DNA from: Leptospirales bacterium
Lineage (GTDB): Bacteria; Spirochaetota; Leptospiria; Leptospirales; Leptonemataceae
Length of the DNA stretch: 64,000 nt
Direction: 5' to 3'
NCBI GenBank assembly: GCA_965243385.1
Contig: CBDEUV010000001.1
Location: forward strand, 70,299 to 134,298
Shown: positions 16,680 through 39,000 of the stretch, piece by piece
How the letters are laid out: every line of letters begins with the position of its first letter
Position numbering within the stretch: the first letter of the stretch is position 1
The notes under the pieces: model-generated
What the model saw: the letters and a program-made list of their open reading frames with translations, nothing else
The model's database searches: none
What the model was told of the DNA's origin: nothing
Position numbers and translations under genes: made by a program

Positions 16680-16698
16680 AGATAGCTCCTCTCGCCAT

Positions 16699-17367: not shown

Positions 17368-17630
17368 GACGCACCGCTTTCGACCACGAGTTGCGATATC
17401 GCGGCGATGCTCTGAAAATTTTCGAACATGACCTGCTCGGGCGCGATCTGAATCTGGTAGTTTTCTTTGATAAAATTTATCGTTCGGATAATCGCCATCG
17501 AATCCAGAATGCCCAGAGCAATCAGATCCGTTTCCGACTCCAATTCCTCTTCGAGCGCCTCTACCAGAATTTGATCGACAATGAATTTTTTTAATCCCCC
17601 CCGGATGTCTTCCAGTACCAGGTTAGCCAT
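17364..17630 (-). CDS. Stand-alone acyl/peptidyl carrier protein
   Basis: 88 aa and acidic. The phosphopantetheine attachment context is 'LGILDSMAI'. It lies immediately downstream of the adenylating enzyme. Confidence 0.75.
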   Translation of the reverse strand: MANLVLEDIRGGLKKFIVDQILVEALEEELESETDLIALGILDSMAIIRTINFIKENYQIQIAPEQVMFENFQSIAAISQLVVESGAS

Positions 17631-17631
17631 T

Positions 17632-19251: not shown

Positions 19252-19255
19252 CGCG

Positions 19256-20992: not shown

Positions 20993-21023
20993 GATGGTCT
21001 GGCCGGAGCGGACTGCCAGCCGC

Positions 21024-22451
21024 TCAAACGGTGTTTGTGGCCCGCCGCTTTCGGGTTCCCGCGGGGAATAGAAGCTCCAGGGACTCGTCCCGCCGGCAGG
21101 TTTTGGAGTAAAAGTCTTCGCGGTTGATCACCAGGTTTTTATAACCTTCAAACATTTTCTGATCGCGGCCTATAAGATCGAAGAGCTCTTCGTACTTCGC
21201 CGAGTTTTCGAAGAAATCTCCGGCCAGAATATAGTGACCGGCGGCCAGGGCGTCTGCGGAATCCCGCGCGAGAACGGACCCCGCCGCGGCGAAATTAACA
21301 GCGTGCGGGTCGTAATACAGACGAATCAGCTTGTACACCACGTCGTACGCGCGGTTGATCAGATCGTAGACCTGGACCAACGGGCCTTTGCCGACACCGT
21401 GCTCTTCCGGATGCTCAAGGATCTGATGCAGTGCGTCGCCCAATAGCGTTCCGCTTTTCATCGAAAGATATACGCCGCTGGAAAAGATCGGATCGATAAA
21501 ACGCGAAGCGTCTCCGACCAGCGCGAAATTCGCTCCGAATTTTTCTTCGGAAAAATATGAATAGTCGCCTTCGACTCGCGGCGCCATAGTCAGCTCCGCG
21601 CCCGCGGTCAGCTCTCGGGTAAACTCGGTCTTCTGGATTTCTGCTCGAAAGAGATCGGCTTTCCAGTCTTCGCCGCCGTCTTTCTGAATCGCTTCTTTCT
21701 GAACCGCTTCTTTCGCCGCCTGAAAGCCGGCGTTGTCCATGACCACTCCCAGAGTCACCGTGTCGGGTCCGAGCGGAAAGATCCACATCCAGCCTTTGCG
21801 ATCCCCGCCGAGATACATGATGATCGAAGTGCCCTCTTCAAGGCCGCCGCTCAATTCGCGTATTCCGGAGAAGTGGCTCCAGATCGCCGTCCGGGCCAGG
21901 CCCGCGTGCGGTTTGCGCTGGCCTCGCTTGTTTGAAAGAAATCCGGAACGTCCCGTGGCATCGACCAGGAATCGAGCGCGATATTCGCGTTCGCCGCCAT
22001 CGGGGCCGTTCGCTCTGACCAGAACCCCTGCTCCCGCTCCTTCCAGGTCGACCGCGGTCGCCCGGGTTTCTTCGCGCACGACGACACCCTTCGAGCGGGC
22101 GTTTTCCAGCAGGATCTGATCGAATTCGGCACGTTTGACCTGAAAGGAAAGATAGCTCTCGTCGTGCAACACGTGATCGAAGCACCAATAGGTGGAATAC
22201 GAATTGTCCGGACTGGCGAAACGCACGCCGGGTTTACGAACGAAACTGCCCTTCATTTGATCGAGCACGCCGATTCGTTTGAAGATGTCGTAACAAAACG
22301 GCAGCAACGATTCGCCCACGTGCTCCCGGGGGAATTTCTCTTTTTCGAGCAGGAGTACGGAATGACCTTGCTGGGCGAGTACGCAGCTCGTGGTCGAACC
22401 GGCCGGTCCACCGCCCATTACGATTACGTCGGCGTCATATTTGTTGTTCAT
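21024..22451 (-). CDS. FAD-dependent oxidoreductase, probable flavin-dependent halogenase (PltA/CmlS type)
   Basis: 475 aa. Motifs: dinucleotide fold 'VIVMGGGPAGS', 'REHVGESLLP', a WxWxIP-like 'GWMWIFPL' and 'GDASRFIDPIFSSGV'. Confidence 0.7.
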   Translation of the reverse strand: MNNKYDADVIVMGGGPAGSTTSCVLAQQGHSVLLLEKEKFPREHVGESLLPFCYDIFKRIGVLDQMKGSFVRKPGVRFASPDNSYSTYWCFDHVLHDESYLSFQVKRAEFDQILLENARSKGVVVREETRATAVDLEGAGAGVLVRANGPDGGEREYRARFLVDATGRSGFLSNKRGQRKPHAGLARTAIWSHFSGIRELSGGLEEGTSIIMYLGGDRKGWMWIFPLGPDTVTLGVVMDNAGFQAAKEAVQKEAIQKDGGEDWKADLFRAEIQKTEFTRELTAGAELTMAPRVEGDYSYFSEEKFGANFALVGDASRFIDPIFSSGVYLSMKSGTLLGDALHQILEHPEEHGVGKGPLVQVYDLINRAYDVVYKLIRLYYDPHAVNFAAAGSVLARDSADALAAGHYILAGDFFENSAKYEELFDLIGRDQKMFEGYKNLVINREDFYSKTCRRDESLELLFPAGTRKRRATNTV

Positions 22452-22493
22452 CGTGATTTTCTCTTTTCCTGTACATTCAGTCGCCCGCTGCGC

Positions 22494-23678
22494 TCAGAGT
22501 CCGAGCAGGCCCGCAATCAGATTTTTTTGAATTTCGGTGGTGCCCGAATACAGCCGGCTGGCCAGGGCGTCCCTTAACTCTCGCTCAATTTCAGTTTCCT
22601 GGAGATAGCCTCTACCCCCGAAAATCTGCAGCGCGTCCAAACAGGTCTGAACATAAGCTTCACTGACGACGCACTTCACCATAGCCGCCTGCATAAAGAT
22701 CATCTCGCCCTGTTGTTTGCTCCAGGCGGCGCGGTACAGCAGGCCGCGGGCCTGCTCCAGACGCAGCTGCATGTCGACGATTTTTTCCGCGATCATCTGG
22801 TATTTGCCGATCGCCTGGCCGCCCTGCTTTCTTTTGCGTGCGAAGGCGATGCACTGCTCCATGATTCGGCGGATTGTCCCGATCGCGGGCGCCAGAATAA
22901 AAGCGCGCTCCCACTCCATAATATGATTGAATAGAGCCATGCCCGCGCCTTCGGCGCCGAGCAATCGATTCGCCGGCACGCGACAGTCTTCGAGAATTAA
23001 TTCGCCCATTTGAGCGGTGCGAACGCCCATTTTCGAATTTTTGATCACCCGGAGACCTTCCGTTTCCCGATCCACCAGAAAACAACTGATGCCGTCCGCG
23101 CCCGATCCACTTCCGGTGCGCGCGAAAACCAGAAAGATGGTCGCAACGGGCCCGTTCGTAACGAACAGCTTTCGGCCGTTTAGTATATAATCCGCGCCGT
23201 CGTTCAGGGCGCGCGTAGTCATAGCATAAATATCCGAGCCGGCCGCAGCTTCGCTCGCAGCGTGCGCTCCAATGAATTCGCCGGAGCACAGCCCCGGTAA
23301 GTACTCTGCTTTCTGGGAATCCGTTCCGAAGTGCAGAAGGGGCGTCTGACAGGCCCACATCTGCGCGTTCAAACCGAAAACCAGCCCGTTGTCGCGACAA
23401 GCGTACCCAAAGGCTTCCAGCCCGCGAATGGTCGTTAAAAGATCATATTCGCCCCCGCCGTAAACGCGGGGCACGATCGTTCCGGGAATTCCCCGGGAAC
23501 AACACTTGCGCCAGCCCTCCGCGTTAAAACTTTGCTCCGCGTCGAGAGCGATGATCTCCGAATCGATCCGGGAGTCGCGGACGAATTCCAGGATTTCCTG
23601 GTGATGCGATTCCTGCCCGGCAGACCACTCGAAATTCATGTCGGAACCCGTAACGAGAACGTCATACTCGAAAATCAC
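22494..23678 (-). CDS. Acyl-CoA dehydrogenase family flavoprotein (PltE/CloN3-like candidate)
   Basis: 394 aa with ACAD N, middle and C-terminal domains ('FIGAHAASEAAAGSD', 'FVTNGPVA', 'LQIFGGRGY', 'RLYSGTTEIQKNLIA'). The listed start is a GTG. An ATG at 23639 is an alternative. Confidence 0.85.
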   Translation of the reverse strand: MIFEYDVLVTGSDMNFEWSAGQESHHQEILEFVRDSRIDSEIIALDAEQSFNAEGWRKCCSRGIPGTIVPRVYGGGEYDLLTTIRGLEAFGYACRDNGLVFGLNAQMWACQTPLLHFGTDSQKAEYLPGLCSGEFIGAHAASEAAAGSDIYAMTTRALNDGADYILNGRKLFVTNGPVATIFLVFARTGSGSGADGISCFLVDRETEGLRVIKNSKMGVRTAQMGELILEDCRVPANRLLGAEGAGMALFNHIMEWERAFILAPAIGTIRRIMEQCIAFARKRKQGGQAIGKYQMIAEKIVDMQLRLEQARGLLYRAAWSKQQGEMIFMQAAMVKCVVSEAYVQTCLDALQIFGGRGYLQETEIERELRDALASRLYSGTTEIQKNLIAGLLGL

Positions 23679-23976: not shown

Positions 23977-25511
23977 GAATTCTGAACGCGGCGTGCGGAA
24001 TTCCTCCTGAAGGCCGTCGCAACTGAGATTTCCATGACCCCGAAGAACATCCCCCCACAGCATGGCCCGAAGCCGGCGACCGGCATGTCGGTTTTTGATT
24101 CAGCAATGAAACACGTTAGATTTAGCAAGCGTACATACAGTACAAATATAAAGGTCGCATTCTGTCTGGGACTTTTGCCGCCGGAGTTGGCCGCATTGAT
24201 TCCGTCATCCACGAGAGCGGACTGGCGAAGGCGCGGTTTCACGCATTTTTTTGGATTGAATTTCCCGGGCCCCGTACTCGGAGACGTTCAGTTCCACCGC
24301 GAATTCGTCAGCGTCCCGGCGTTGCGTGCGATCGCGAAGGCTTTGTTTCGACTGTATCGCTTTTATGCGCGCGCCACCGGGCAAATTCGGGGGGCTAAGA
24401 AATTCTGGAAAAACAATCGTGAAAAGATCGTGGCGGCAGTGCAGTCTCTGCGGCCTGCTTTTGGCTTGAAGCGCGCCTGTCGTATGCTGCGAATTACGGT
24501 TTCGAAATTCTATCGCTGGCGAGACGCGGTCGCCTGTGTTTCGTCCAGCAGAGGCGTGTGTCGCAAGCGACATCCCACCCAGATTTCGTCCGCCGAGGAG
24601 CGCGCGGTTCGCGATTACGTGAACGATCCCCGTTTCGCCGGTTTCAGTATTGTAAATATCTGGCTGCAGATGATGCGGGACGGAGCGGCGGCGTTTGGCC
24701 TCTCTACGTTTCGAAAGTACGCCCGAATGTGCGAAACCACGCCCGAAAGATTTCACAAAGCACGACCACCGGCCGGTATTCGCGCGGAGCGAAAGCTGGA
24801 GCTACTGCATATGGATAGCACGGTTTTTCATCTGGCGGATCGCCGACGCATGTGGATTCATTTGATCATCGACAATTTCTCTCGCGCGATTCTGGGCTGG
24901 CGACTGATGGAAAGCAATCGTTCGCTGGAAGTCGCGGCCAATCTGCGCGAGGTTTGCGAAACGTACAAGCTGCGCGAAAAGGGCGTCGTGGTTCTCGCGG
25001 ACGACGGTTCCGAAAACCAGGGCGCGGTCACTGAATTTCTCGCGGAGCCGGGCGGCATGGTTCGCCGACTGATCGCCCAGGTGGACATTCGGCCCTCGAA
25101 CAGCATGGTGGAAGCCGTCAACAAGGTTTTGAAAAATCAGTTTCTTTTACCGCTGAAAACCGCGTTGCGCACCGCTCGCGAGCTTGAAAAAGCGCTCGCT
25201 CAGCAAATCGAACGCTATAATCATACGCCGAAATTCGCGCTGCATGGTCTGACTCCGGCCGAAGTGCTGGCGGGGCAGATTCCCGATCCGAAAATTTTCG
25301 CTGACGCATTGAGAGACGCGCGAATCGAACGTATTGCTGTGAATCGCGCGGCAGCCTGCGGAGTTTGTTAGAACGAGCGCGAGAAAACGGGCGACCCCGA
25401 GCCGCTCAGTCTTTTTCGATACGCGGTCCCGGGTTCATTAGAGGGGGTTCGGATACCCGGATTCCGATTCTCGTTTTGGCGTGGTGAGTGCAGCGCGCCG
25501 TGCAGAATTGG
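23977..25511 (+). mobile_element. IS-like element (DDE transposase gene bracketed by related palindromic motifs)
   Basis: The transposase ORF is flanked by 'GAATTCTGAACGCGGCGTGCGGAATTC' (23977-24003) and '...GCGCGCCGTGCAGAATTGG' (25493-25511). I could not define the exact termini or a target-site duplication. Confidence 0.4.
24034..25371 (+). CDS. DDE (rve/integrase-core) transposase
   Basis: The catalytic core pattern is 'LHMDSTVF...HLIIDNFSRAILGW...VLADDGSENQG...MVEAVNKVLKNQF'. The N-terminus looks HTH-like. The true start is probably an internal ATG (e.g. MSVFDSAMKH...). Confidence 0.8.
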   Translation: MTPKNIPPQHGPKPATGMSVFDSAMKHVRFSKRTYSTNIKVAFCLGLLPPELAALIPSSTRADWRRRGFTHFFGLNFPGPVLGDVQFHREFVSVPALRAIAKALFRLYRFYARATGQIRGAKKFWKNNREKIVAAVQSLRPAFGLKRACRMLRITVSKFYRWRDAVACVSSSRGVCRKRHPTQISSAEERAVRDYVNDPRFAGFSIVNIWLQMMRDGAAAFGLSTFRKYARMCETTPERFHKARPPAGIRAERKLELLHMDSTVFHLADRRRMWIHLIIDNFSRAILGWRLMESNRSLEVAANLREVCETYKLREKGVVVLADDGSENQGAVTEFLAEPGGMVRRLIAQVDIRPSNSMVEAVNKVLKNQFLLPLKTALRTARELEKALAQQIERYNHTPKFALHGLTPAEVLAGQIPDPKIFADALRDARIERIAVNRAAACGVC

Positions 25512-25636
25512 TTGGGTCTTAGGGTGGTTGGTTTCGCCCCCGAAATGGTTTCTATTTCGCAGGGCTTCCGGCACGACTTAGTCTCGCACCTCGTGAGGAG
25601 GAAAGAATGTTCGATGCGCCTTGCTCGCCATCGGAC
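25491..25636. repeat. Cassette-flanking repeat, copy A (~146 bp)
   Basis: Aligns base-for-base, with scattered substitutions, to 28627-28771 in direct orientation. It contains a CGAAAT-N7-ATTTCG stem. It also has 'GAGGAGGAAAGA-ATG' followed by a 14-codon mini-ORF (25607-25651). Confidence 0.85.
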
Positions 25637-25657
25637 AGATTTGATGAATAAAATTCA

Positions 25658-26038
25658 TTATTGTTCCTGGTTTTCTAAAGGCCCACCAGTCTCTGCTTGC
25701 GCCGCCTCCATTTTCACCTGGCGCTCAATCAATCCAACGGACGTTCCAAGAATCACCGCGCCTGTAAAGAGCCAGACCTGAAATACTCTCTGCTTGCTGC
25801 GAAATTTTTCATGCAGTTGGAATAGACCGCCCATAATGGTTGCCAGTATGAATGGACCGAATACGCCACCACCGATTAAATACAGGAATCCATTAGGGCT
25901 GTCTGTGTCTATGACAGCGACCATAATGATCAGCAGTGGCACGCAACTCAAAAGGAGCAGAAACAAAGCGCCGAGCATCCAGAGGACATACGGTTCTTTC
26001 TCGTTTGATTTCGATTCGTTCATTTTTCTCTCAACCAA
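25658..26038 (-). CDS. Small membrane protein (3 predicted TM helices), unknown function
   Basis: 126 aa. Hydrophobic stretches include 'VLWMLGALFLLLLSCVPLLIIMVAVI', 'LYLIGGGVFGPFILATIMGGLF' and 'VWLFTGAVILGTSVGLI'. It lies between the two halves of repeat copy A. Composition is lower in GC than the surroundings. Confidence 0.5.
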   Translation of the reverse strand: MVERKMNESKSNEKEPYVLWMLGALFLLLLSCVPLLIIMVAVIDTDSPNGFLYLIGGGVFGPFILATIMGGLFQLHEKFRSKQRVFQVWLFTGAVILGTSVGLIERQVKMEAAQAETGGPLENQEQ

Positions 26039-26080: not shown

Positions 26081-26138
26081 CGACGACTTTTCGTCACCAC
26101 GCCGGGAACCAGCGCCGATGAGTTTTTGGACCTTACAC
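26081..26138. repeat. Conserved segment spanning the stop codon of a small (immunity-like) ORF, copy A'
   Basis: 'CGACGACTTTTCGTCACC...GCGCCGATGAGTTTTTGGACCTTACAC' is similar to 28803-28860. In both copies the segment's last six bases are the terminal Val and stop codons of the small ORF (minus-strand GTGTAA), and the rest is the sequence immediately 3' of the stop. Confidence 0.7.
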
Positions 26139-26570
26139 CTGCCGAGAAGGCCCTCCTGACAATTTCTGGACCCACTCGGGATTCAAGTTGGCTCTCTCTA
26201 GAATTTGCGATATTATTCTCACCTCTACCTCTTCTGGTTCAATCAACACAAATTGGGGGAGCGCGCTTTTGCGAAAAATAAAGATCACAGTGCTATCCAG
26301 GCGCGATTGCATCTCATCCACCGCATGACGCGCCAGCAGTGCAAGTTCGTCTTGTATGGGATGGTCCAACTCTAGTTTTTGAACAAGTGTTGGGTTATGC
26401 TTATCAATCAGCCACACGGACGAGCGGCCTTTCGCAAAGAACAGCTGCTTGTCTCTCGCCGGGCACATAAACAGCTCCTCTTCAGACTCAAGGTTGATCC
26501 CCTGCTTAAGCTCATTTCGAAGAGAACTGAAAAAATCTTGTATGGCCGGATCATTTGGATCGTTTATCAT
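26133..26570 (-). CDS. Putative immunity protein for the orphan toxin cassette
   Basis: 145 aa, acidic, no signal peptide. Its ATG directly abuts the toxin-cassette stop (TAAATG at 26568-26573). No recognisable family. The assignment rests on position only. Confidence 0.55.
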   Translation of the reverse strand: MINDPNDPAIQDFFSSLRNELKQGINLESEEELFMCPARDKQLFFAKGRSSVWLIDKHNPTLVQKLELDHPIQDELALLARHAVDEMQSRLDSTVIFIFRKSALPQFVLIEPEEVEVRIISQILERANLNPEWVQKLSGGPSRQV

Positions 26571-28268
26571 TTATCTTAACCTTATTCGCCTTGCAGCAAT
26601 GTCTTCAGGTATCAAGACCGAACTTTTTTGGCCGAGCCGAGAGAACATTAACCGATCGGCCACTGAAAATGAATGGTCCGTAACTGGATGAGTATGGGCT
26701 ATAACGCGCTTAACATTATGCGGGACAAAGATCTCAGTTTCCGATGTACCGAGCACTAATTGGCGTAGCCCATCGTTCGTACGAATCAGACCTACCTCTC
26801 TCCCTGTAGCAAATTGGATGTCTTTCATTATCTGGGAATTGATCTCACCACGCCCGATAGTTAGAAGGCCATCAGCCGAGTCTTCGAAATCTCGAATATA
26901 TTTTTGGGCTTCAGGGCTAATTTTGTTCCAGTTGCGCGTTGGAATCCAGTCATTTTTCGGTGAACCGAATTGCAAGTTCGAGCCTAACCGAGCCTCCGTG
27001 AGAGGGCCTGAGGCTCTGCCAAAATCGTCAATCGAATTCGCAAACCGTCGAGCCGTCCCCGCCTTCGCCGCAACACCAACGCCCGCCATCGCACTGGCAA
27101 CCTCAAAGCCTACCTGGCCGGCGTTAAACTGCCCCTGTATCCGAGCCGTAAAATTCGCCGGCTGGTAGAAGGCCTCCGGCGTTGAGGCGCCGTAAGCCAG
27201 GTTCAGTTTCGTCTTCAGGCCGTTCCAGAGACCGGAGACGTCATCTCCGAGGCTCGCCTTGCCTTCAATACGATCGGCAATTCCGCCAGAGACCTCGCCA
27301 AACACTCCTGCCAGACGGCCTACCTGACCGAGCGGATCGCTCACGAAACGCAGGACGTCCATCGCTCCCTGGCCTACCGCATTCGTGATACCACGATAAG
27401 CATTATTACCGATGTGGTAATAGGCGTTTTCATAATCGCGCGCGCCTTCCCAGCCGCCTTGTTCATAGGCATCCTTGTGCCCCTCAACTGCCTCCCGGTA
27501 CGCGGACGTGCTCGGATCGTTGAAATTCAGCACGTCATTCATCGTGTTCTGCGCCCCTCGCAACCAGTTATCCAGAGCCGAGAACGGATTGTACTTATGG
27601 TACAGACCGCCGGTTTTCAGATCCGTTTGCGAAACGCCCACTTTGCTCGTGCTGGCATAATTCATCAGCTGACCGTATTTCTGCATGCCGTACTGGTAAC
27701 CACGGAATGGAAGGGCCACTGTACTGCGACCGGCTTGAACAGCAGCGCTGCCCCATTCGCCCGCCGTCATATTGCGCGCTTGATTGTATTTGCCGGTGGC
27801 TTTGACGTCTGTGCTCTTAAGGCCCCAGTCATCGTATTTCTTCTGCAGGTAGCCCTGAGTTTTCCAGCCTGTCTGCTTGTCCACCCAGCCGGCCATTCCA
27901 TTAATCAGACCGTCTTGCAGGAGTAACCAACTGCTATCGCCGCGAGCCGCTTGCTGTTGAGCGACCTTCTGTTGCTGTTTGATCGCCGCCGCTTTCGCGA
28001 GCTCCGCCTGCTTGATTTGCTGCCGCCCGCGGTAGTCCGCGTTGATATACTTCTGATATTTATCCGCGAACTCGGTACTGAGACCTCGTTCACGCAGCTC
28101 GGCCTTCACCGCCAGTGCTTCCTTGATGCGTCCGCCCTTGTATAGTTTCTGGAACTCCTGGTTTTTCGCGTACGCGAATTCCGCGTCCGCATGCGATTGA
28201 AGCTTGCCGATGATTTCTTCGCGGCGATTCATCGAATAACCCATGCCGGCAATGATATCGCGCGCCTC
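26571..28268 (-). CDS. Orphan (5'-truncated) polymorphic-toxin C-terminal cassette with JAB/MPN-like motif
   Basis: The open frame runs to 28709, but similarity to the giant protein begins only at 'HEARDIIAGMGYSMNRREEI' (~28208-28268). The C-terminus carries 'EVGLIRT...AHTHPVTDHSFSVADRLMF' (HxHx7SxxD). No convincing start or RBS lies near the junction. Confidence 0.6.
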   Translation of the reverse strand, partial: EARDIIAGMGYSMNRREEIIGKLQSHADAEFAYAKNQEFQKLYKGGRIKEALAVKAELRERGLSTEFADKYQKYINADYRGRQQIKQAELAKAAAIKQQQKVAQQQAARGDSSWLLLQDGLINGMAGWVDKQTGWKTQGYLQKKYDDWGLKSTDVKATGKYNQARNMTAGEWGSAAVQAGRSTVALPFRGYQYGMQKYGQLMNYASTSKVGVSQTDLKTGGLYHKYNPFSALDNWLRGAQNTMNDVLNFNDPSTSAYREAVEGHKDAYEQGGWEGARDYENAYYHIGNNAYRGITNAVGQGAMDVLRFVSDPLGQVGRLAGVFGEVSGGIADRIEGKASLGDDVSGLWNGLKTKLNLAYGASTPEAFYQPANFTARIQGQFNAGQVGFEVASAMAGVGVAAKAGTARRFANSIDDFGRASGPLTEARLGSNLQFGSPKNDWIPTRNWNKISPEAQKYIRDFEDSADGLLTIGRGEINSQIMKDIQFATGREVGLIRTNDGLRQLVLGTSETEIFVPHNVKRVIAHTHPVTDHSFSVADRLMFSRLGQKSSVLIPEDIAARRIRLR

Positions 28269-28617
28269 ATGGTCACTACGCAACACCCAGATCGCGCACG
28301 CTTCACTTCCTGTGAAGAGCGCTGCGACGACTCGCCTTCCTGGCTCGTCGGCTGGGTATTGCTTCGTTCTCGTTTGGGGCGAATCCCCCGCCCGGCTTCG
28401 CCGGCCAGGGGACCGGGCCGCTACGGGCTCCGCGTTCGCTACGGTCCTTCGCTTGGGTACTTCCAAACACTCGAAGTATTTCTGCAGATTTCGCCCGCTA
28501 CGGACTCGCACTTCGTGCGACCCTGCACGTCCCTTTCGCTTGCTCTTCGCAGCGAAAGAACTGCCAATTAAGGGTGACTGACCGCTTCGCGGCCCTGGTA
28601 AACATTTGATTGGATCT

Positions 28618-28646
28618 CCAATTCTGCACGCGCCGTGCAGAATTGG
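28618..28646. repeat. Perfect palindrome (13-bp stem, 3-nt loop)
   Basis: 'CCAATTCTGCACG-CGC-CGTGCAGAATTGG'. Degenerate relatives sit on both sides of the transposase gene, at 23977-24003 and 25493-25511. Confidence 0.85.
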
Positions 28647-28771
28647 TCGTATTTTTGGATGGTTGGTTTGGCCCCCGAAATGGTTTTTATTTCGAAGGGC
28701 TTTCGGCACGACTTAGTCTCGCGCCTCGTGAGGAGGAAAGAATGCTCGATGCGCCTTGCGCGCTATCGGAC
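28627..28771. repeat. Cassette-flanking repeat, copy B (~145 bp)
   Basis: Direct repeat of 25491-25636. It has the same stem and the same SD+ATG with a 14-codon mini-ORF (28742-28786). It is nearly contiguous with the post-immunity segment 28803-28860. Confidence 0.85.
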
Positions 28772-28854
28772 TGTTTTGCTGGGTGAGATTCATTTTACAA
28801 CACGACGGTTTTTCGTCACCAGACAAAGGGAGGGCGCCGATGACTTTTTGGGCC

Positions 28855-29415
28855 TTACACATTTTGGATCTCACCATATACTTCTTCAATCCGTTCCTTA
28901 AAATATGGTGCACTTTTCTTGACCTTATTCTTGAAGTAGTCAGGATTTTTGTCCCAAGGATCATGCACGGCTGCACGCTCGCGCAATAGTCGATCAACTT
29001 CATCCGCCAGGTCGTCGTCTTCGTCTATTATAAAGAAGCTGAAAGCATCTACGGCCGTGTAGTGGACTCCAGTGGAATTGGGGAGAAAACCAAGAGTACG
29101 GATCATTCCCTCTCCTGCGACCAATTCGCGAAAAGAATCGAACGACAGTTCAACTTGAGGGAGCGCGCTCGGATGTTCTATTGCATGGATGCGCTCCAGA
29201 TATGCCACAGCTAATTTCTCATTTGCGTCCGAATCAAATTGCACTGCCTCAAATTGGTCTGTCACGAAGTATCGCGAATTTGAGGGTGATTTAATTGATG
29301 AGGGATAGAATTTACCCTCCTGATCTAGATATATGGGAGGCTGGTAACAAAGAATCAGATTTTGTTCGTCGATTATCTCATTTGCAATCTGAGTAATATT
29401 TCTACTCCGCACCAT
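28855..29415 (-). CDS. Putative immunity protein, paralog 2
   Basis: About 186 aa, starting at the ATG at 29415 (AAGGTGG upstream). It aligns along its length with the 184-aa ORF at 29484-30038. Examples: 'NSRYFVTDQFEA' vs 'DSRYFMTDQYEV', 'GMIRTLGFLPNS' vs 'GMLRTIGFLGNS', 'FSFFIIDEDDDL' vs 'YSFYVIDEDDEL'. Confidence 0.6.
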   Translation of the reverse strand: MVRSRNITQIANEIIDEQNLILCYQPPIYLDQEGKFYPSSIKSPSNSRYFVTDQFEAVQFDSDANEKLAVAYLERIHAIEHPSALPQVELSFDSFRELVAGEGMIRTLGFLPNSTGVHYTAVDAFSFFIIDEDDDLADEVDRLLRERAAVHDPWDKNPDYFKNKVKKSAPYFKERIEEVYGEIQNV

Positions 29416-29483
29416 AACCACCTTTTAGAGGAACACGTATGACCTTTTTAGATCCTGCAGATGACGAATTTCTCGCGCTTTAT

Positions 29484-30038
29484 CTATTCACAAAAGGTAT
29501 TCAGTACGTTCTCTATCCGATCAGACGGATAACCCGCATCGAATAGCTTCTTGCCTTCGAAATACTCTGATATATTGTCCCAGACATTTCTGATTCCGGC
29601 CTCCTGTCTTAGCCGAGTCTTAACCGCATCGTACAGTTCATCATCCTCATCTATCACGTAGAAACTATACGCATCAACAACTGTACGCAGCGAATTCCCC
29701 AAAAAACCAATGGTCCGAAGCATTCCGGGACCCTCCAGGTAGTTTCGAGCTACTTCCTTCGTTGGCCGCGAATCTGGCATCGGAGATGGATTATCCAGTG
29801 CAAGGACACGCTCTATGCTGGCCAAGGTAAACCTTTTTGCTTCCTCGTCTGGGAAGCTAGCGACCTCATATTGATCTGTCATGAAATACCTCGAATCGTT
29901 CGGGTCATCACCGTTTTGCGGCGCATAGAAGCCATTTGAATCAACGAAAGCCGGAGTATTGCAGCAGAGTATCAACGATTCCTCGCTGATTGTTTTTTCC
30001 ACTATTCGATTCAAAGTATTAGAGTCTCTTGATTTCAT
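29484..30038 (-). CDS. Putative cognate immunity protein of the giant toxin, paralog 1
   Basis: 184 aa, cytoplasmic-looking and acidic. Its ATG overlaps the giant ORF's stop (ATGA at 30035-30038), implying translational coupling. Confidence 0.65.
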   Translation of the reverse strand: MKSRDSNTLNRIVEKTISEESLILCCNTPAFVDSNGFYAPQNGDDPNDSRYFMTDQYEVASFPDEEAKRFTLASIERVLALDNPSPMPDSRPTKEVARNYLEGPGMLRTIGFLGNSLRTVVDAYSFYVIDEDDELYDAVKTRLRQEAGIRNVWDNISEYFEGKKLFDAGYPSDRIENVLNTFCE

Positions 30039-33000
30039 CTCAGATTCCTCACAACCTCAACTCCCCCAATATCGTCGATCAGTATTTTCACTGCATTCTG
30101 GCTCTTAAGCCCCAGGTCCTTAAACCGTCTCGCAGAGGCCTCACTCCAGCGATACAGTTGGCCATCAAATATCACGTCTAAACTATTTAGCTTACCGCCG
30201 CTGGCTCGTCGTGCGTAAGAAAAGAAATCGAAATCTGCTTTGGACGGGCCGCCATAGTTAAAATGCGTATGTACCGAGACATCGGTGGACTTATCTGCAA
30301 ACATTCGAATACTACGCTTCGTCAGATTTCCAGCTTCATCGTAATGATTCACGCCTCTCTTCAGCCAGAGCTTTCCTTTGAATCTAAACATTCCCCACTC
30401 ATGCTGAGTATGCTTCGCAAGATGTTGCAACTGTCGTACGCTCAGCGCCTCTGAAATTTCCAGCCCATCCTCAAACTTATTGAGCATGAAATCGACGGAA
30501 CGCTGCCCGGGCTGCCTGGGACTCCTAACACCCTGCACTCCCTGACGCATTTTACGCGCGTCGCCAAACCAGCCTTTCGCGAGGCTATCGCCATACGTCT
30601 CCTGGACCAATCGGCCCCGACCAGTCCCGGACAGGGAAGCCCCGGTCAGTCGCGATTCAAGCGTCGCGGCAAGGCGCTCTGTTCGCAGCGCATTCCGAAC
30701 CTGCCCAAACCTGGCCGGGTTACCATACGCCAACCCAACCCGGCCGCCGTTGCGCGCTAGCAGAACCGAGCGACTCACCGCCGCAGCTCCTCTCAGGGCT
30801 GTGGTCGCGATCTTGCCGGCACCCCACGTCGCGACCGCTTCGCCGACGAATATCGCAGTATTGCCGATCATCCGGCCCGTGTCAATCGCACTCTGCGTGC
30901 CGTAGTACAGCGCCGCGTTCAACGCCTGGTCGTTCGATCCGAATCGATTCAGTTGCTGCAGCTCCCGCACTGGCTTGTAGTGATTCACTATGTCCTGGTT
31001 TACGTGCGCGGAATTTCGATGATACGTATCTTTCCAGCCGCCGTCCGCCTGGCCTACTGCCCATTGTGCCGTCGTCGCAATGCCCCATCCGATCTTGCGA
31101 ATCGTCGTCTGGTAGTCGAAGAGCGCGTTCTTGACTCCAATCCATTTCGCCGTGCTGTTCTGCGCCATTTCGATGCGGTTCGGTTTGAACACAGTATCGT
31201 AGTTGCTGACTTCGCCTGGCCTCAATACGCCCAACTCCGCCCGGCGGCGGGCTGCGTTTCGGTCATAGCTCGGGTTCCGGCGTCCGCGCCAGGCCCGCTG
31301 GCCGGCTTTGTATGCGTTTTCGTAACGTTCCTGCTCAGCGATCGCCGCGATCGGACTCTCAAATCCGTTCTGGCGCGCGGCCATGTATTCGTTATATGCT
31401 TCTTCGCTGCCGAGGATCCGGATGCCGCGATCTCGCTGGCTTTCGCGGTTGTAACGTCCTGCATGTCCGCCGGGACGCCGTTCGATTTGCGCCGATAGCC
31501 TGCGGTATTCCATGACACGGCCGTGTTTTTCCACGAGTGCTTTCTGCTGCGCCTGCGCTTGTTCTTGCGCGATACGCTCCTGACGCTCCACATACGCTTT
31601 GCCGTACTTCGCAATTGCGATCGCCCGCGTGTTGCCGCTCGTGTTCAGTGCTGAGCGATAAGAGTCTACCTTCTTCGCCATCCCGCGAATGTCATAGCCG
31701 GCCAGCGCAGCTTCCTTCAGGAAAGCATTTGTCTGGCCGGTGGTCTGCTTCATGAACAGCTCTGAGTCAAACTTGGCTTCCAGTTCCGCGAAGCTCTTCA
31801 CTCCGTGTTTCGCGAGCAGTGTTTCCTGCCGATCGATTGTGCCGAAGATCTCTTCGCGGCGGTTCATCGAATAGCCCATACCGGCTATGATGTCGCGGGC
31901 TTCATGTTTCTGCCCATTTCGCAGCGCGTCGCGTGCTTGCTGAATTTTACGTTCGGTTGCCTGCCGGTCCTGTTCGGCACGCGCCTCGTTCAGCTTTGTA
32001 CTGAGCCCAATTCCACCCAGCGCGCCGAGTCGCCCGCCGTCCACGTTATACATCCCCATGAAGCCGCTCTGGTCCGCACCCCAGGCTCTGTACTTTCCGT
32101 ATTCGCTGGCCACTCCGAAAGCTGTCGATGCTCCGTCCTGCGCGAGTCCTGCCGCGAAGCCGCCGATCTTTTGATCCTGCAGATGCGCTCCTACCGCGCT
32201 GCCCAGCAGGCTACCGCCGACCGCCAGCGCCGCACTGGCGCCCTGGTTCCCTGCGAAATTGAAGCCCTGGAGTGTGCCATCCGCACCGTAATTCGCACCG
32301 GCTCGAACTGCGGCGCTCGTTGCGCCGGCAATCGCATTCATTGTTGTCACTGTGCCCTGAGCCGCCCGACCCAGTTCCACCATCTTCGCACCGGCACCGC
32401 CAATGAATGAAGTGGCGGTCACCAGCGCGGTATCCATCGCCGCCTGGTCCGTCATCTTCATCATGCGCTCGCCGGTCGTGGGGTTCACCTGGATCGAGTT
32501 CGCGATTCCCGTAATCGCCATACCGGCAGCCGCCACGAGCAGTCCCAGAGGCCCGGTCGCTACCGTCATCGCGGCGCCGATGCCTGTGACCACACCGCCG
32601 GCTGCTGCAAGCGGCGCTTTAATCATGTTCAGGCTCTGCGCTTCCCACATGTATCCACGGCTCTTGCCGTTTACCTGTGCCGCGATCTCTACGTTTTTAT
32701 AACTATTCGCCATCATCAGCGGAACGTTATACTGATTTAAGAACGTGCCGGCCATTACGCCCACGTCTGCGAGGACTGTGTTCTGGAACGGGCCGAATGC
32801 GACTCCGGGATCCGCCGCCTGCGCCAGTGCTTTGCTATCGCCCTGTCCTGTTAAACGACCCGCCAGTTCCAGCTGCGGATAGAATCCCAACGGCGCTCCA
32901 CCGGGCCGCACGCCCATCACGCCCTGTTCGCCGAAGCCGGCGAAGCCCACGTATTTCAGCGCTGTTAAAGCATTGCCGCCGTCTGCCAGATCGATCTTCG

Positions 33001-36000
33001 CGGCCTGCACTGCATTGCTGGCCAGCTGCGATTCGCCGTTCGCTCCACCGGGCGCGCGTCCTGCCCACGTTCCGAAGCGGCCGATGATTTCTTCATCCTG
33101 ACTTTCGCGGCGCTCTTCCTGAGTGCCACGCCCCATCAAGACTTCATAGACGCGTTGTAACGCCAGCTTCTGAACGTGAAAGAAGGCCTCCACTTCCACA
33201 TCATCTTTGCCCGCCAGGAACGTCGTCAGCTCTCCGCCGTCCATTTCCTTGAAGCCGGACTTATCCAGCTCTTCGCGCAGTACGCCTGCGGTGTCGAAGT
33301 ACGAATACGCATTCACGACTCCCAGTGCGTCTGATATATTACCCGATTTTACAAAAAACGCGCCGCTGCGTACAAAGCCTGCATTAAACGCCGCTGTCTG
33401 CGTCTGCTGGTCGATGATCGCGTTCTGGTCTTCCAGCTGAGCCGCGAAACCATCAAAGAGCTTTCTGTACTCCTCGAATACTTTCACATTCGCGAGAACC
33501 TTCAGGTTCTTCGCGTGCAGCCTGAGCGCTTCACGATAATCCGCATCCACCCCTGTGATCGCTGAACCGAGGTTGGCGCCGGTCAGTTCGGATACGCTCA
33601 AGCGCGTTTTGAAATCCTTGATGTTGTTATTAATCTTCTGGAATTTCTCCGTGAAGCTCGGCTTATCGTTCTCCAGCCCGGCCAGAATTTCATTCACGTA
33701 CGCCGTCGTGCTGATCGAAGCCATATTCGCGCCCATATTCTGGTTCGCGATCGCAATCTGGTTATTCAGTTCGTTTACGGACTGAGTTAATACTGCCGTC
33801 AGATTCTCTTCGCTCGAACGATCACGGACATCCTGCTCCCACTGTTCTTTCTTCTCAAAGTGCTCCGCAATCTGCTCATCCCACTTCCGATTTCCTTCAG
33901 CCTCGTCGTTATCGAGCTTCCGCTCCCACTCACGCCACTCTTGTAAGAAGCGGTTCTCAGCGTTGCCCCATGAACTGCGACCGCGCGCAAGCAGCAGATC
34001 CATCTTTCGCTCCCACTCTTCGTAGCGGTCTTGCAGCTCCTGCTCGCGGAGGTCCCACTCTTTTTCCTGCACGACTACGCGCTGCTGTAGTTCGGCGTCG
34101 AACACATCGCTCTGGTTTTCCACGTAATCCGCGTGGGTCAGCCGGTAGCCGGTGTATTCCCGGCCGCCCTGGTCTTGGTCCGTGGCCTGTCCGTACAGGT
34201 TCTCGTATGTGGCGTCGCGTTCCTGGTAAAGGAACGTGGTATCCACTGTCGCTGCTGCGCCGGCTGCGAGATAACGTTGCTTTCTGTCGTTGCGTAGATC
34301 CGTTCCGTGCTGGACCAGCATATCCATGATGCTGCCCATATTATAAGCGTCTTCCAGCGGTTCGCTATCGTCGATGATGCGTGCGTATTGGTAAACGGTA
34401 CCACCATTATTCTGCATCGCTCGGACTCGCGTATAACGCTGGCCACCGATGATATAGGCGTTGCCGTCGCGCGGTCCGCCGACTGACGTAAGAGTCGAAG
34501 GATCGTAGCGTCGGCCGAATGCGTCTTTGTATGTGACCTGGTCTTTGAAGCCGTCGACATCCAGCGCGTCGTTTTGCTCTTCAGCGGTCAGCGTCTGTGC
34601 GGCTCCGGTTTGTGTTTGATAGACGGGATCGCCGTTGCCGTCTCTATCGAAGAGATATTTCAGATCTTCATCTGTGAGATCGTACAAGTTGTTGGCGCTG
34701 TCGTTATCGCCGTGCTGCGCGCCCCATTGCACCATCCGCTCTTTCAGACTTTGCATATCCGGGACTTTGCTGAAATAGTCCACCGCGGCCTGTGCGTCTT
34801 CGTATTCCGCCTGCTTCGCACGTACATCGTTGATCTGTGGCATGAATCCGGCGTTAAACGTCGCCGCCCCCATGAATAGCATACTGAACAGCGCCACCAT
34901 GTACTGCGCCTGGCTGATGATCATCTGGCTTTGCGCGTACGTGATCTGAGCCATACCCGCCGCGCGCATCGTCGCGGTGATAGCGGTTGCGGCTACGGCC
35001 GTGTACGGGTTCGCGGAGAGCGTCGCCTGTAACGCGCTTGCTGCGGCGATCATCGCTACCCCCGCGGCCATGACTGTTGCCATGAGCGTTTGCGTGATGG
35101 CGTTTCGGATCAGATCCAGATCATGCGCCATGATGGTCATCAAATAGCCGGTGTATACTCCCTGGAATCCGGAGAAGGCTGCCAGGTTGCCGCCGGTTCC
35201 TAACCACAGACCGATCGCATTCTGATCGCTGGCGGGCATGAGCGCCGCGCCCAGAATGCCGCTTGATGCTTCCAGCACCTGCCCAGGTGTGATCTGCACC
35301 TGCGTTCCACCGAGTGCTGCGCCGTATGCGGCCTGCCCGACGCTTCCTGCCCATGCTCCTGCGCCCCAAAACCACGATCGGAATTCGTTGACGTAATTGA
35401 TGTCGCCGGTTTCTGCCTGCGCGGCCATGCGCATGTAGACTGCATCGCGGGCGGCCATGATTTCCGGGTCATTCTTCTGGGCTGCGTTTACCTGGAATAC
35501 ACTGTCCAGTTTCGCATAGAATTGTTGTTTCTTTTCATCTAGGACGCTTTGTCTGCGCTGCATCTCGGCTTCGATGATTTCTTCCGCCTTATGAATGCGG
35601 ACCATTCTCATCGTATGTTTAATATGTTCGGCGCGCGCCGTGATTACATCCGCGTAGCGTTCGTACATCTCGCGGTGGGTCAGCTCTTGCAGTTCCGTTT
35701 CTTCGGCGGCTGTGAGCGTTTCGTTGTCCGTGAATTTCCGGTCGCGCAGTTCGAGCAAGCGATCGCGCTCTGTCGCTCCCAGCGGCGGGTAGCTTTGATT
35801 TGCTTCGATGCCGGTTACGATCTGGTAGAAATCCCCCAGATTGTCCTGCGTTTGCACGTTATACGCGGCCGTTTGCAGGCTGGCGTTGGCCTGGTCGAGT
35901 ACGGCCACGGCTCTGCGATACTCTTCGCGGGCATTATTCGCCCAATCTTCGATCGTGGCGTTTTCGTCTTCCCCGTCGTTAATCAAATACGGTGTTTCGG

Positions 36001-39000
36001 CGTAGTCCTGAATGCTGCGCCGCATTTCATATTCGCCGTTCGCGGCCTGATAGTTGCGGTACCGGGACGCCATCTCGTTCAGCGCGTTGACGTGATTCTG
36101 ATTCGCGATGGCGTATGCGTTCCGCAGGGCGTTTTCCTGGTCGCTCAGATTGCCCAGCGTGGTCTGCGCGAGATCGAATTCGTCGGCGATCGGCTGCATG
36201 ACGTTGTTCAGGTACGCCACCTGCCCGATGGTCCGGATCTGGTTTCGGCGGCCGGCGTCGGCGAATTGTTCGCCGTTGCGTAATACGGTCGCGAGGCCTT
36301 GCTCGATCGCTTGTTGCTTTTCGCCGATCTGCAGCTGGCCGTGGGCCGCGAGTCTTGCTGTCGCGTCCTGTTCGATGGTCTGCAGTACGGTGAGGTCGTT
36401 TACGCCTGCGGTTGCGTTTGCGTCGTAGCCGGTGAGTTGCTGCGCGATGCGTTCGTCGGGCGGTGTGGCACGTCTTGCGTCGGCCATCTGCGTGGCGTTG
36501 AAGATATTCGCGAAGGCCGCGTTCAGATTGCTGGCGGCTTCCAGATAGTTATTCGCGAGATGTTCTCTAAACGTATACTGCAGCTCGACGTTGTAATCCG
36601 CGTTTGTGCGATTGTTCGGATTCGCCACGGTGCGGATTCGTTTGAAATCAACGGTGATATCGTCGTCCGGATTCGCGGTATCGGTTCCCAGATCGACTGT
36701 ACCGGCAATCGCTGCGTCGTCTGATAGGAGGAGGTCTTCCCAGTTGGCGTTATCGAAGAGCGTATTCGGATCCAGGTTCAGGCTGTCTGCCGCGAAGATC
36801 TGGCCGTTGTGGTATTCCTCGAAAGTCTTTGGACTGCCGCTGGTGACGTGGTCCTGTTCCTGGTATGTGCGTTCCGTTCCGATATACGTGCGATAGTGCG
36901 CGAAGCGACTCGCAAGCAGATCGTCGCCCACGCTGTTTGCGAAGTCCTTCAGTCGGTTCGTCAGCTCGCGCTCGCGGGCGTATTCGCGTTCTTTGTTCTT
37001 TAAGTAGCGGCTGTGGTCCGCTACGGTTCCCTGCAATGCTTGCGTGAGTTCCTGCATCACGGCCGCGGTTTCCGCCTGGCGGATGCTCGTGCCGTAGCTC
37101 GGTCCTATTTTCTGGAACGGATCGAGTAAGCCGGGATCGGTTAAGATCTCGTCGATATAGTTGCGTTCGACGTCGGTCTCCATCAATTGCGTGAGATAGC
37201 GATCGATTAAGACGGCTTCTTTTTCCGCGAGTTCACGCACGGCCGGGTTGGCCTGTTGCGCGGCGGTTTCCAGTAGCGTCTGCAGTCCGGGGATTCCGCC
37301 CAATAACGTCGCGCTTTCCGCACTTAAGCTGCCGCGCACGCCGGCTTCGACCTGCAGCGCTTCTAAGTACGCGCGCATGATCCCGTTGCGGTTCTGGCGC
37401 GCCGCCTGCAGTTGCGTATCATCCGCGGTGCGGTTGATATAGGCGAAGGCCCCGGCTTCGAACGCGTCGAAAATACCGCTGGCGGCTAACTCCTGCGCAC
37501 TCTTCACGTCGAAGGCGGTCTGGTAGTCGGCGATATTCGCCACTAAGGCCGCGCTGTCGGTTGCGCCCAGCGCAGTCCAGATCGCGGTTTGCAGCTGATC
37601 GAAGGCGGTCTGTTGCGTCGCGCTCATGCCGGCGTACAGCGCGGGTGTGCCGCCCTGACTTCTGCTCACGAGCGCTGCTAAGAATTCGCCGCGGTTTTCT
37701 TTGGCGGCTTGCTGTAGTTCGCCGTTTCCTTGCGCCAGTTCGGCGAAGAAGGTGTTCTCAACTTTCGCGTAGCGTTCGCCCTGCGCTGCGTAGAAATTGT
37801 TCAGCTGCTGGCGGTCAGCTTCGTTCGGCAGCAATTCGCGCAATACTCGATCCTGTCGCAGCACGTTTAACGGTGCAGTGGTTTGCCCTTGCGATGCGAG
37901 CACCGCCGCGCTGTGGTTCGCGCGGATCATATTCAGGAGCTGCGTGCGATCCGCGCCTGCGGTCGCGCCGTATCCCGCGCGATTTAGCACGGCTTCGGCT
38001 TCCGCGTCGCTCAAAAAGAGGCCGCTGGCGTTCGAGTTGCCGCCGTTCGCCGCAAGTAACACGTCCAATCGGCCGAGTTCTTCGGCGAAGCGTGCGTCCA
38101 CTGCGGCCGCCATCGCTTTGTGGTCAGCGGTCGTGTAGCCTGCGATATTCGTTAAATCATCCGGCAGATATTCGTTCGCTGTCCTCACGGCGTTATTCAA
38201 TTCGCCGGCCGTGCGTAGATCATCCAGATAAGCGGGTAGATATTCTTCAGTCGCCGTTCCGTTTTCGATGGCGTTGAAGCTCAATAATTCGAAGGCTTCC
38301 AGTTGCGACTTCGCGAGCAGGCGCTGCCTTAAACTCTCGCCGCCGCGAGTATAGGCCGCGTCGTCCAGCACCGCTTCGAAGACCGCCTCGAATTCCGTCT
38401 GGCGATCGGCGACGGTTGCTCCGGAGAAGGTGACGCCGTTGCGGGCGATATAGTCGCGCACCATGCTCAAGACGATCACCGGCCGGAATTCGCCGGCGTA
38501 TTCGGTTTCGTTCAGGGTATACGCGTTGTCCGGCGTGGTCGCCAGTCGCTGGTATTCGCGTTGCGCCAATTGTTCAAACAACGTCGCGTATCCCGCGCCT
38601 AGCAGCTCCGGGCTCGTGCCGCGGTCGATCATATACTCTTCTATATAGCTGGCGATCCCGCGTCCGCCGTTCTCTTCGGCTCCGGCGATGTACGTCGCGT
38701 AGTCATTCGCCGCTAAATAGTCCGCGAAGTCCTGCACGGCCAGGGATCGCGCCACGTCGCCCAGCAGACCGCGCAGATCAAGCGCTGCGGCGGCGCGTTC
38801 GCTCTCCACGTCCGAATTCTTGCGCGCGAGATAGTCGGCGTAGCGTTGCTGGCCCGCTTCGTACTGGCGCACCAGTACGATTTCGCGCAGTTCCGCCGGA
38901 TAGTCCGCGGCTTCGTACGTATCGGCGTACTGCGCGGTGATCACAGCAGTGCGCAGGCTGCGCGCGTACAGATCGTCTTCGAGCGCTACGGTCGCCGTGG

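Follow-up and report, generated by a model that had tools for sequence, protein, structure and literature searches.

Does the truncated, toxin-like open reading frame (ORF) that lies downstream of a giant gene in a Leptospirales genome end with a JAB/JAMM-type domain, and what would such a domain do there? The locus is carried by the contig CBDEUV010000001.1 of the assembly GCA_965243385.1, of which the positions 70,299 to 134,298 (forward strand) were analysed; this stretch of 64,000 nucleotides is referred to as the window and all coordinates are counted from its first letter. The preliminary description of this DNA had proposed that the orphan toxin cassette ends with the zinc-site signature of the JAMM/MPN+ proteins. 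We consider it quite probable that the orphan ORF, found downstream of a full-length main gene coding for a 5088-aa protein, ends with a JAB-superfamily toxin domain within an orphan toxin-immunity cassette. The region 26133-28271 (minus strand) would represent the orphan toxin-immunity module of a polymorphic-toxin locus, its toxicity being inferred. The elements involved are as follows.

26571..28709, minus strand: mechanically called ORF containing the orphan cassette, 712 codons with a GTG start
26574..26960, minus strand: putative JAB/JAMM-like toxin domain, amino acids 584-712 (129 aa, isoelectric point (pI) 9.6, GC content 0.46)
26796..26798, minus strand: codon of Glu638 (E55 in domain numbering), the predicted water-activating general base, invariant in 46/46 domains and aligned with the Glu of RadC
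26688..26696, minus strand: codons of His672-Thr-His674 (H89 and H91 in domain numbering), predicted Zn ligands, invariant and aligned with the HNH of RadC
26655..26666, minus strand: codons of Ser682-Val-Ala-Asp685 (S99 and D102 in domain numbering), with Asp invariant and Ser conserved in at least 90% of domains
26133..26570, minus strand: candidate cognate immunity gene (145 aa, pI 5.0, GC content 0.48), whose ATG abuts the TAA of the toxin

The peptide GREVGLIRT...VIAHTHPVTDHSFSVAD... is encoded near the end of the ORF 26571..28709 (minus strand), the C-terminus of which reads ...FATGREVGLIRTNDGLRQLVLGTSETEIFVPHNVKRVIAHTHPVTDHSFSVADRLMFSRLGQKSSVLIPEDIAARRIRLR* and is followed by the stop codon TAA (26571-26573). 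The signature E...HxHx7SxxD announced for the positions 26648-26800 is indeed present, and the codons of its residues E638, H672 (26694-26696), H674 (26688-26690), S682 (26664-26666) and D685 (26655-26657) are all included in this interval. The spacing is exactly H-x-H-x7-S-x2-D, with the glutamate located 34 residues before the first histidine. The regular expression H.H.{7}S..D was found once in the six-frame translation of the window (95,836 residues), where composition leads one to expect 0.18 occurrences. Chance alone could yield such a motif, which by itself constitutes weak evidence; it becomes significant because it is conserved across homologues.

Nine relatives were detected when the last 179 aa of the orphan ORF were used in a word-indexed search. 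From the alignment of these relatives, a full hidden Markov model (HMM) search recovered 220 cluster representatives with E<=1e-3, and 111 with E<=1e-10. The family HMM, which describes a domain of ~130 aa, scores the copy of the window with 117 bits (E 8e-36). The sequence HTHPSGxLxFSxxD is found in most of the 157 retrieved homologues, where HTH predominates and HSH and HVH occur as variants. Conservation was determined from an alignment of 46 diverse domains sharing 23-74% identity with the window's copy. Invariance is limited to the columns E55, G71, H89, H91 and D102, and the columns S99, S113, R60, G53 and P92 are conserved at 90% or more. The first relatives found, from Planctomycetota, contain 3-6 additional residues between S and D; most members of the family have the canonical S-D spacing seen in the window's copy. 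The named matches come from metagenome-assembled genomes (MAGs) of Planctomycetota and Acidobacteriota and from Urbifossiella, most of them being Planctomycetota and one an Acidobacteriota. The profile search for encoding loci (alignment A1) returned five genome loci and no viral contig, and no precomputed Pfam domain was present on 40 database matches to the family profile.

The relationship of this family to the JAB superfamily was examined by profile comparison. Prok-JAB, the sole Pfam match of the window's protein, reaches 15-18 bits (17.9, for a gathering score of 25) and an E-value of 0.003-0.02, and the match covers the HxH...D stretch alone. Matches of this sub-threshold kind recur among the 46 members: Prok-JAB is detected in 26 of them (best E 2.1e-4) and RadC in 24 (best E 4.6e-4), each other Pfam family in the table having matched one member only. 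None of the 46 members is matched by the two curated toxin JAB families. The profile searches suggested by the preliminary description thus bring out Prok-JAB and RadC repeatedly, though below threshold, and leave the curated toxin-JAB models absent. The reference for RadC was a JAB alignment made from E. coli YicR, PDB 2qlc and 112 domain cuts. With this 112-sequence reference, hhalign aligned the family over 50 columns, the probability being 89% and the E-value 2.3e-6. The elements placed opposite each other are rEV/rE-F, G/G, HTHPSG/HNHPSG and S..D/S..D, and one helix specific to RadC is skipped. The controls, made with the reversed template and with 20 column-shuffled ones, gave at most 0.5% and E-values of at least 0.13. 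The value of 89% is below the customary 95%, and this comparison is supportive rather than conclusive.

The structure of the domain was predicted with AlphaFold, the mean confidence (pLDDT) being 83.6 with 10 sequences and 91.1 with 46 sequences (pTM 0.86 for the latter). In the model, HxH ends the strand 83-91 and S..D opens the helix 100-109 (domain numbering), and the order of the secondary-structure elements is compatible with an MPN/deaminase-like fold. With both models, the best fold matches in the PDB are the JAB1/MPN protein AF2198, P. furiosus JAMM1, Cap3, Rpn8/Rpn11, CSN5 and cytidine deaminases, with Foldseek probabilities of 0.97 for AF2198 and 0.9 for P. furiosus JAMM1 (template modelling (TM) score 0.45). 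A mixture of JAB and deaminase matches is expected because both groups share one fold (PMC3239186). The MPN-fold comparison advocated earlier places JAB proteins among the best matches of the predicted model, with TM scores below 0.5 and the deaminases ranking equally. The fold search in BFVD matched phage JAB, RadC-like and tail-component (K-like) proteins. The strongest structural match overall is A0A8S5MRD2 from BFVD (query TM score, TMq, 0.71; root-mean-square deviation 3.0; E 1.7e-6), a 490-aa phage "minor capsid protein" whose matching part is C-terminal. This match far exceeds that with any solved JAB structure, and more "minor capsid proteins" appear lower in the list. This annotation class includes MuF-type carriers of polymorphic toxins, and the predicted structures hint that the same toxin domain may be carried by phage MuF-type proteins.

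Some results weigh against the interpretation as a JAB-type toxin. No model of the Pfam JAB clan reaches its gathering score on the window's protein. In the profile search of PDB sequences, the best JAB proteins are RadC 2qlc with E 0.27, in the motif region only, and the AMSH-like Sst2 with E 1.8; no match was significant, whether the PDB sequences were searched with the single sequence or with profiles of 10 or 46 sequences. The PDB fold matches display TM scores of 0.37-0.45 only, with E-values of at least 0.025, and cytidine deaminases score level with JAB proteins. The orphan ORF has no evident proper start or promoter. No secretion or trafficking module of Pfam or NCBIfam was detected in the 5088-aa carrier, nor any secretion-system gene among the scanned neighbours. 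Set against these points, membership of the JAB superfamily is well supported, albeit not proven, by three independent and individually moderate lines, namely the recurrent Prok-JAB/RadC matches, the hhalign comparison and the fold. The reading of the motif as a JAMM/MPN+ zinc site is likewise favoured by these comparisons of sequence and predicted structure, no single one of them being overwhelming.

The domain ends at 25 aa or less from the C-terminus of the protein in 126 of 143 well-covered copies. Among the long carriers are RHS-repeat proteins that also contain DUF6531 and TIG domains. The toxin-like domain is all that the carriers have in common, with one another or with the proteins of the window. 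Many other members of the family are short cassettes of ~100-200 aa with little beyond the domain. At the window's locus, the GC content is 0.46 in the domain and 0.48 in the partner gene, against 0.57 in the upstream part of the orphan and 0.60 in the main gene. An equal drop in GC content is observed in the last ~155 codons of the main gene and in its two downstream genes.

The partner gene has a counterpart in the closest homologous locus (L007), where a 145-aa gene follows the toxin with a 4-nt overlap with its stop codon. Between the window and L007, the partners share 36% identity (E 1e-32) and the toxins ~70%. The proportion of nonsynonymous differences (pN) amounts to 0.20 in the toxin and to 0.44 in the partner, with a proportion of synonymous differences (pS) of 0.88; synonymous sites are saturated, hence pN and pS are given and not dN/dS. 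Both toxin and partner are under purifying selection and the partner diverges faster. The toxin domain has a pI of 9.6 and the partners are acidic, with a pI of 5.0 in the window and 4.4 in L007. The 145-aa partner has no relatives in Pfam, NCBIfam or the PDB, and neither a signal peptide nor a lipobox is visible in its sequence. When the other JAB loci were searched with the immunity HMM, the partner was found in L007 only, so that the immunity proteins do not form one family. Unrelated small ORFs are located downstream of the domain in the other loci, as expected for polymorphic immunity. The qualification of the cassette as an orphan toxin by the preliminary description finds support in the C-terminal position of the domain, in its RHS carriers, in the short junction shared with the main gene (described below) and in the coupled partner, homologous to that of L007.

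Could the motif have arisen by chance in a decaying or non-coding ORF, the orphan being a dead remnant devoid of any JAB domain? The 0.18 occurrences expected in the window, the first 146 codons of the ORF, which look non-coding and cross a repeat, and the lack of any Pfam match above threshold would fit this explanation. However, the same five residues are conserved in 220 homologous representatives, the AlphaFold model is confident, pN is 0.20 for a pS of 0.88 against the closest homologue, the frame is intact up to a stop codon abutting the conserved partner gene, and the hhalign controls exclude an artefact due to the motif only. A chance motif is extremely improbable and was rejected on the basis of the conservation in homologues, of hhalign with its controls and of pN/pS. 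Scarcely more credible is a nucleic-acid deaminase toxin with a cytidine-deaminase fold, comparable to DddA or to the TOD toxins. Such an enzyme would account for the presence of 3dmo, 2d30, 6k63 and 1ctt among the top PDB fold matches (probability 0.7-0.97) and of TOD4/6 toxins and the DYW domain further down the fold list. However, these cross-matches are expected from the fold shared by JAB proteins and deaminases (PMC3239186), and the sequence-profile signals go to Prok-JAB and RadC alone. The deaminase signature, with H/C-x-E on one helix and PCxxC on the following one, is absent and no cysteine is conserved in the 46 members, the invariant residues being E, G, H, H and D; this candidate was rejected because the Cys motifs are lacking. 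The domain might also be a peptidase for self-processing or maturation, releasing or activating another part of the carrier instead of being the payload. JAB enzymes do process proteins elsewhere, the domain is preceded by ~415 aa of uncharacterised variable sequence, and some metagenomic proteins (P0010, P0016) contain two to five internal copies. Nevertheless, the domain is the last module in 126 of 143 copies, also on RHS proteins, in which the terminal domain is the encapsulated toxin, and many members are cassettes of ~100-200 aa containing little else. It co-varies with a coupled, fast-diverging, small acidic partner, typical of immunity proteins, and shares its low GC content with the gene of this partner. 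A processing role appears improbable, although less so than a chance motif or a deaminase.

We thus return to the JAB-type toxin. In JAMM enzymes, two histidines and one aspartate bind Zn2+, a glutamate activates water and a serine stabilises the intermediate. By homology, we predict His672, His674 and Asp685 as the ligands of Zn2+, Glu638 as the residue activating the Zn-bound water and Ser682 as the stabiliser of the tetrahedral intermediate. The 129-codon domain (26574-26960) would be the killing module, and the acidic 145-aa protein (26133-26570) would neutralise it as cognate cytoplasmic immunity protein. Concerning the substrate, for which the preliminary description implied the chemistry of a deubiquitinase or isopeptidase, we give about even chances to an amide-type bond that the domain would hydrolyse with the help of Zn in some target within the cytoplasm. 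A cytoplasmic target is argued from the partner, the sequence of which contains no signal peptide, and the full set of residues of amide hydrolases, including Ser, is conserved in the family. All biochemically characterised JAB/JAMM enzymes known to us are (iso)peptidases. The same JAB-fold toxin could act instead as a metal-dependent nuclease on DNA or RNA, a possibility to which we give somewhat less credit, the (iso)peptidase activity of the characterised enzymes and the conserved residue set speaking against it. Toxins that target nucleic acids are usually basic and accompanied by an acidic partner, as is the case here (pI 9.6 and 5.0), and RadC is the closest JAB clade by profile comparison (HNHPSG versus HTHPSG). 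It has been argued (PMC3482391) that the residues which line the tunnel for the ubiquitin tail are missing from toxin JABs as they are from RadC, and that toxin JABs are likelier nucleases; Tox-JAB-2 has been placed among nuclease-type effectors of the type VI secretion system (PMC9635880). However, a 2024 preprint (bioRxiv 10.1101/2024.03.05.583533) states that neither the activity nor the substrate of Rhs-Tox-JAB-2 is known yet, and no computed result discriminates between these substrates.

JAB-fold toxins were predicted in 2012 by Zhang, de Souza, Anantharaman, Iyer and Aravind (PMC3482391), and the earlier remark that such toxins have been proposed and remain little characterised agrees with that work and with the 2024 preprint (bioRxiv 10.1101/2024.03.05.583533). 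Two types were distinguished (PMC3482391). Tox-JAB-1 displays NxxxE, HxH, S and D, forms the C-terminal end of RHS proteins, is confined to Bacteroidetes and is associated with the lipoprotein immunity Imm65; Tox-JAB-2 displays E, H[ST]H, S and D, corresponds partly to DUF4329 (PF14220) and is associated with Imm-NTF2-2. The window's family shares with Tox-JAB-2 the nature of a C-terminal toxin domain of the JAB superfamily, the signature E, H[ST]H, S, D, the RHS carriers, the phage proteins and a downstream gene for a cytoplasmic immunity protein (here a candidate). It differs in that PF14220 matches none of its 46 members at E<=1, that the partner in the window has no Pfam match and is not recognisable as Imm-NTF2-2, and that Planctomycetota and Acidobacteriota are not among the phyla listed for Tox-JAB-2 (PMC3482391). 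The DUF4329 protein ORF24 of phage OP1 (E 6.4e-5) reaches only 7% in hhalign against the family profile, with E, HTH and D in register; the scan of the phage OP1 genome with the family HMM gave nothing, and this DUF4329 protein was located by its motif. The window's family may be a distant branch of Tox-JAB-2, from which it is set apart by the DUF4329 model and by OP1 ORF24. With Tox-JAB-1, it has in common the JAB fold, here predicted, the C-terminal position on RHS proteins and the residues HxH, S and D. Unlike Tox-JAB-1 (Toxin-JAB1 in Pfam, PF15659), the window's copy has Ala instead of Asn four residues before Glu (FATGRE), no member of the family matches this Pfam model and no lipobox or signal peptide is visible in the partner.

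The best profile-profile match is RadC (PF04002; E. coli YicR, PDB 2qlc), with E, G, HxH, S and D in register. The core HNHPSGxxxPSxxD of RadC is near-identical to HTHPSGxLxFSxxD of the family and the substrate of RadC is equally unknown. In contrast, the RadC HMM remains sub-threshold on all 46 members, RadC possesses an extra helix of ~11 residues (PREI...) between strands that is lacking in the toxin family, and RadC proteins work inside the cell, with housekeeping functions or as part of mobile elements, instead of forming C-terminal modules accompanied by immunity genes. The JAMM/MPN+ isopeptidases (AF2198, P. furiosus JAMM1, Rpn11, CSN5, AMSH, CBASS Cap3) share the signature E...HxHx7SxxD with canonical spacing and, as judged from the model, HxH at the end of a strand and SxxD at the start of a helix. 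However, the TM scores are 0.39-0.45 with AF2198 and PfJAMM1 and ~0.3 with Cap3, Rpn11/Rpn8 and CSN5, and the window's family has no significant sequence-profile match with these enzymes. No ubiquitin-like partner is evident at the window's locus, and the window's domain is predicted to be a secreted-toxin module with an immunity protein.

The organisation of the locus around the cassette raises the question of how the orphan relates to the main gene. The additional features concerned are listed below.

30035..45301, minus strand: full-length 5088-aa gene, source of the junction
28205..28271, minus strand: homology junction with the 5088-aa gene, peptide HEARDIIAGMGYSMNRREEI (BLASTP, 21/24 identical; blastn, 86.6% over 67 nt)
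26961..28204, minus strand: variable pre-toxin region, ~415 aa, GC content 0.57, backbone-like
28855..30038, minus strand: two paralogous immunity-like genes, 29484-30038 (184 aa) and 28855-29421 (188 aa)
28625..28794, no strand assigned: direct repeat copy B, ~170 nt, between the second immunity paralogue and the orphan
25489..25659, no strand assigned: direct repeat copy A, ~170 nt, 87% identical to 28625-28794
25658..26023, minus strand: small gene for a predicted multi-pass membrane protein, 121 aa as called, with weak DUF2157-type matches

The similarity between the orphan and the 5088-aa gene is limited to the junction, the counterpart of which is located at 31840-31906 (residues 4466-4489 of the ORF 30035..45301). 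The pre-toxin region has no relatives in Pfam, NCBIfam or the PDB, and the corresponding part of the main gene is not related to it. In the ORF 26571..28709, only the codons 147-712 resemble the coding sequence of a toxin system; the codons 1-146 look non-coding and cross the repeated intergenic element. In identical metagenome contigs, gene callers gave the orphan product 712, 646 or 589 aa. In-frame ATGs are present at codons 156 and 160 (M156, M160), starts that could permit a low-level stand-alone expression, and the scan for promoters and terminators revealed nothing above the shuffled expectation. By analogy with the orphan Rhs cassettes (PMC3967940, PMC7043789), the orphan would most likely be a reserve cassette, recombination at the junction moving the toxin with its immunity gene onto the full-length carrier. 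Like the orphan Rhs/CdiA cassettes, of which the orphan rhs of Salmonella are examples (PMC3967940, PMC7043789), it is truncated, devoid of the delivery part, placed downstream of the full-length gene, identical to this gene over a short stretch and provided with its own immunity gene. It differs by the very short length of the shared stretch (67 nt, about 22 codons), by its carrier, a 5088-aa protein without recognised domain instead of Rhs or CdiA, and by the direct repeat of ~170 nt that brackets the module, with an insertion sequence (IS) adjoining.

One copy of this repeat is located downstream of each toxin-immunity module, and a perfect palindrome with a 13-bp stem (28618-28646) is found at the start of copy B. 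Two shorter repeats, 26081-26138/28803-28860 and 23922-23948/28408-28434, keep the same order. The spacer between modules appears to have been duplicated. The gene of the small membrane protein is located between the immunity gene and the repeat and has no counterpart after the main module; its product might provide additional immunity at the level of the membrane, or be cargo without relation to the module. The positions 24034-25371 (plus strand), between repeat copy A and an acyl-CoA dehydrogenase gene, are occupied by a transposase gene of IS type (rve integrase core, E 3e-8). The metagenome contig L008 is identical to the window up to the position 25269, within the transposase gene, and diverges beyond, which suggests either several copies of the IS or a structural variant marked by it.

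No Pfam or NCBIfam domain was detected in either half of the 5088-aa protein, which looks largely helical, contains Gly/Ala-rich hydrophobic stretches late in its sequence and displays no similarity with the other carriers of the toxin domain. Its gene is translationally coupled (ATGA) to an upstream ORF of 318 aa (45298..46254) with an N-terminal hydrophobic segment. The C-terminus of the main gene product (30038-30502, minus strand, ~155 aa, GC content 0.47) contains TQHE(4968)WGMFRF...VSVH(5011)THFNYGGPSKAD..., with HxHx6SxxD. Against the family, this region gives 37% in hhalign (E 3.5e-4, 121 columns) with E, G, HTH and S..D in register. From this alignment, the toxin of the main gene and that of the orphan may be remotely paralogous, while their immunity genes differ. 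The two immunity-like paralogues that follow the main gene are 39% identical (E 3e-45) and belong to no known family, the first one (184 aa) overlapping the stop of the main gene by ATGA. They are probably the cognate immunity gene and a spare.

Several observations concern the neighbourhood of the locus and the other carriers of the family. A natural-product cluster (9708-23678, minus strand) adjoins the toxin locus. It encodes a 2323-aa nonribosomal peptide synthetase (C-A-embedded luciferase-like monooxygenase-T-TE), a methyltransferase, an acyl-AMP ligase, a B12-radical SAM enzyme, a flavin halogenase and an acyl-CoA dehydrogenase. In metagenomes, the protein P0010 (6027 aa) contains five internal JAB-like copies and the protein P0016 (5193 aa) two, ~400-1400 aa apart; these are perhaps genuine proteins with several toxins, or else series of orphan cassettes that appear as one ORF because high-GC DNA is read through. 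In a MAG of Planctomycetota (L005, 412-3036), an array comprises a 284-aa protein with a JAB-like end, a Cys-rich ORF of 158 aa and an ORF of 322 aa. The C-terminus of the latter (..GVEYGYF...VLMHTHIDEVSPGACEYD..) gives 35% in hhalign against the family with the catalytic residues in register. Tandem JAB-type cassettes seem to be common in Planctomycetota.

The family of the window was filed as an uncurated JAB-superfamily domain of polymorphic toxins, of the known Tox-JAB kind and nearest to RadC. That it represents a third clade of JAB toxins, apart from Tox-JAB-1 and Tox-JAB-2 and nearest to RadC, with a novel cytoplasmic substrate and a 5088-aa undescribed delivery scaffold, is conceivable but rather doubtful. 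If this were true, a minimal MPN core of ~115-130 aa would have been disseminated to proteins as diverse as RHS proteins, "minor capsid" proteins of phages and giant proteins of Planctomycetota. A JAB toxin in itself would not surprise a specialist. Because no retrieved member has a Pfam assignment, a curated family model would be useful and would annotate a few hundred "hypothetical proteins". The locus offers an experimental handle, with a confidently modelled domain of 129 aa, five mutable residues and a paired candidate neutraliser of 145 aa, and L007 provides a natural second toxin-immunity pair for the comparison of specificity. Such a compact toxin-immunity pair makes the question of the substrates of RadC and of the JAB toxins directly testable. 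Once the substrate is identified, JAB toxins could be assigned to the peptidases or to the nucleases, and RadC would probably be better understood as well.

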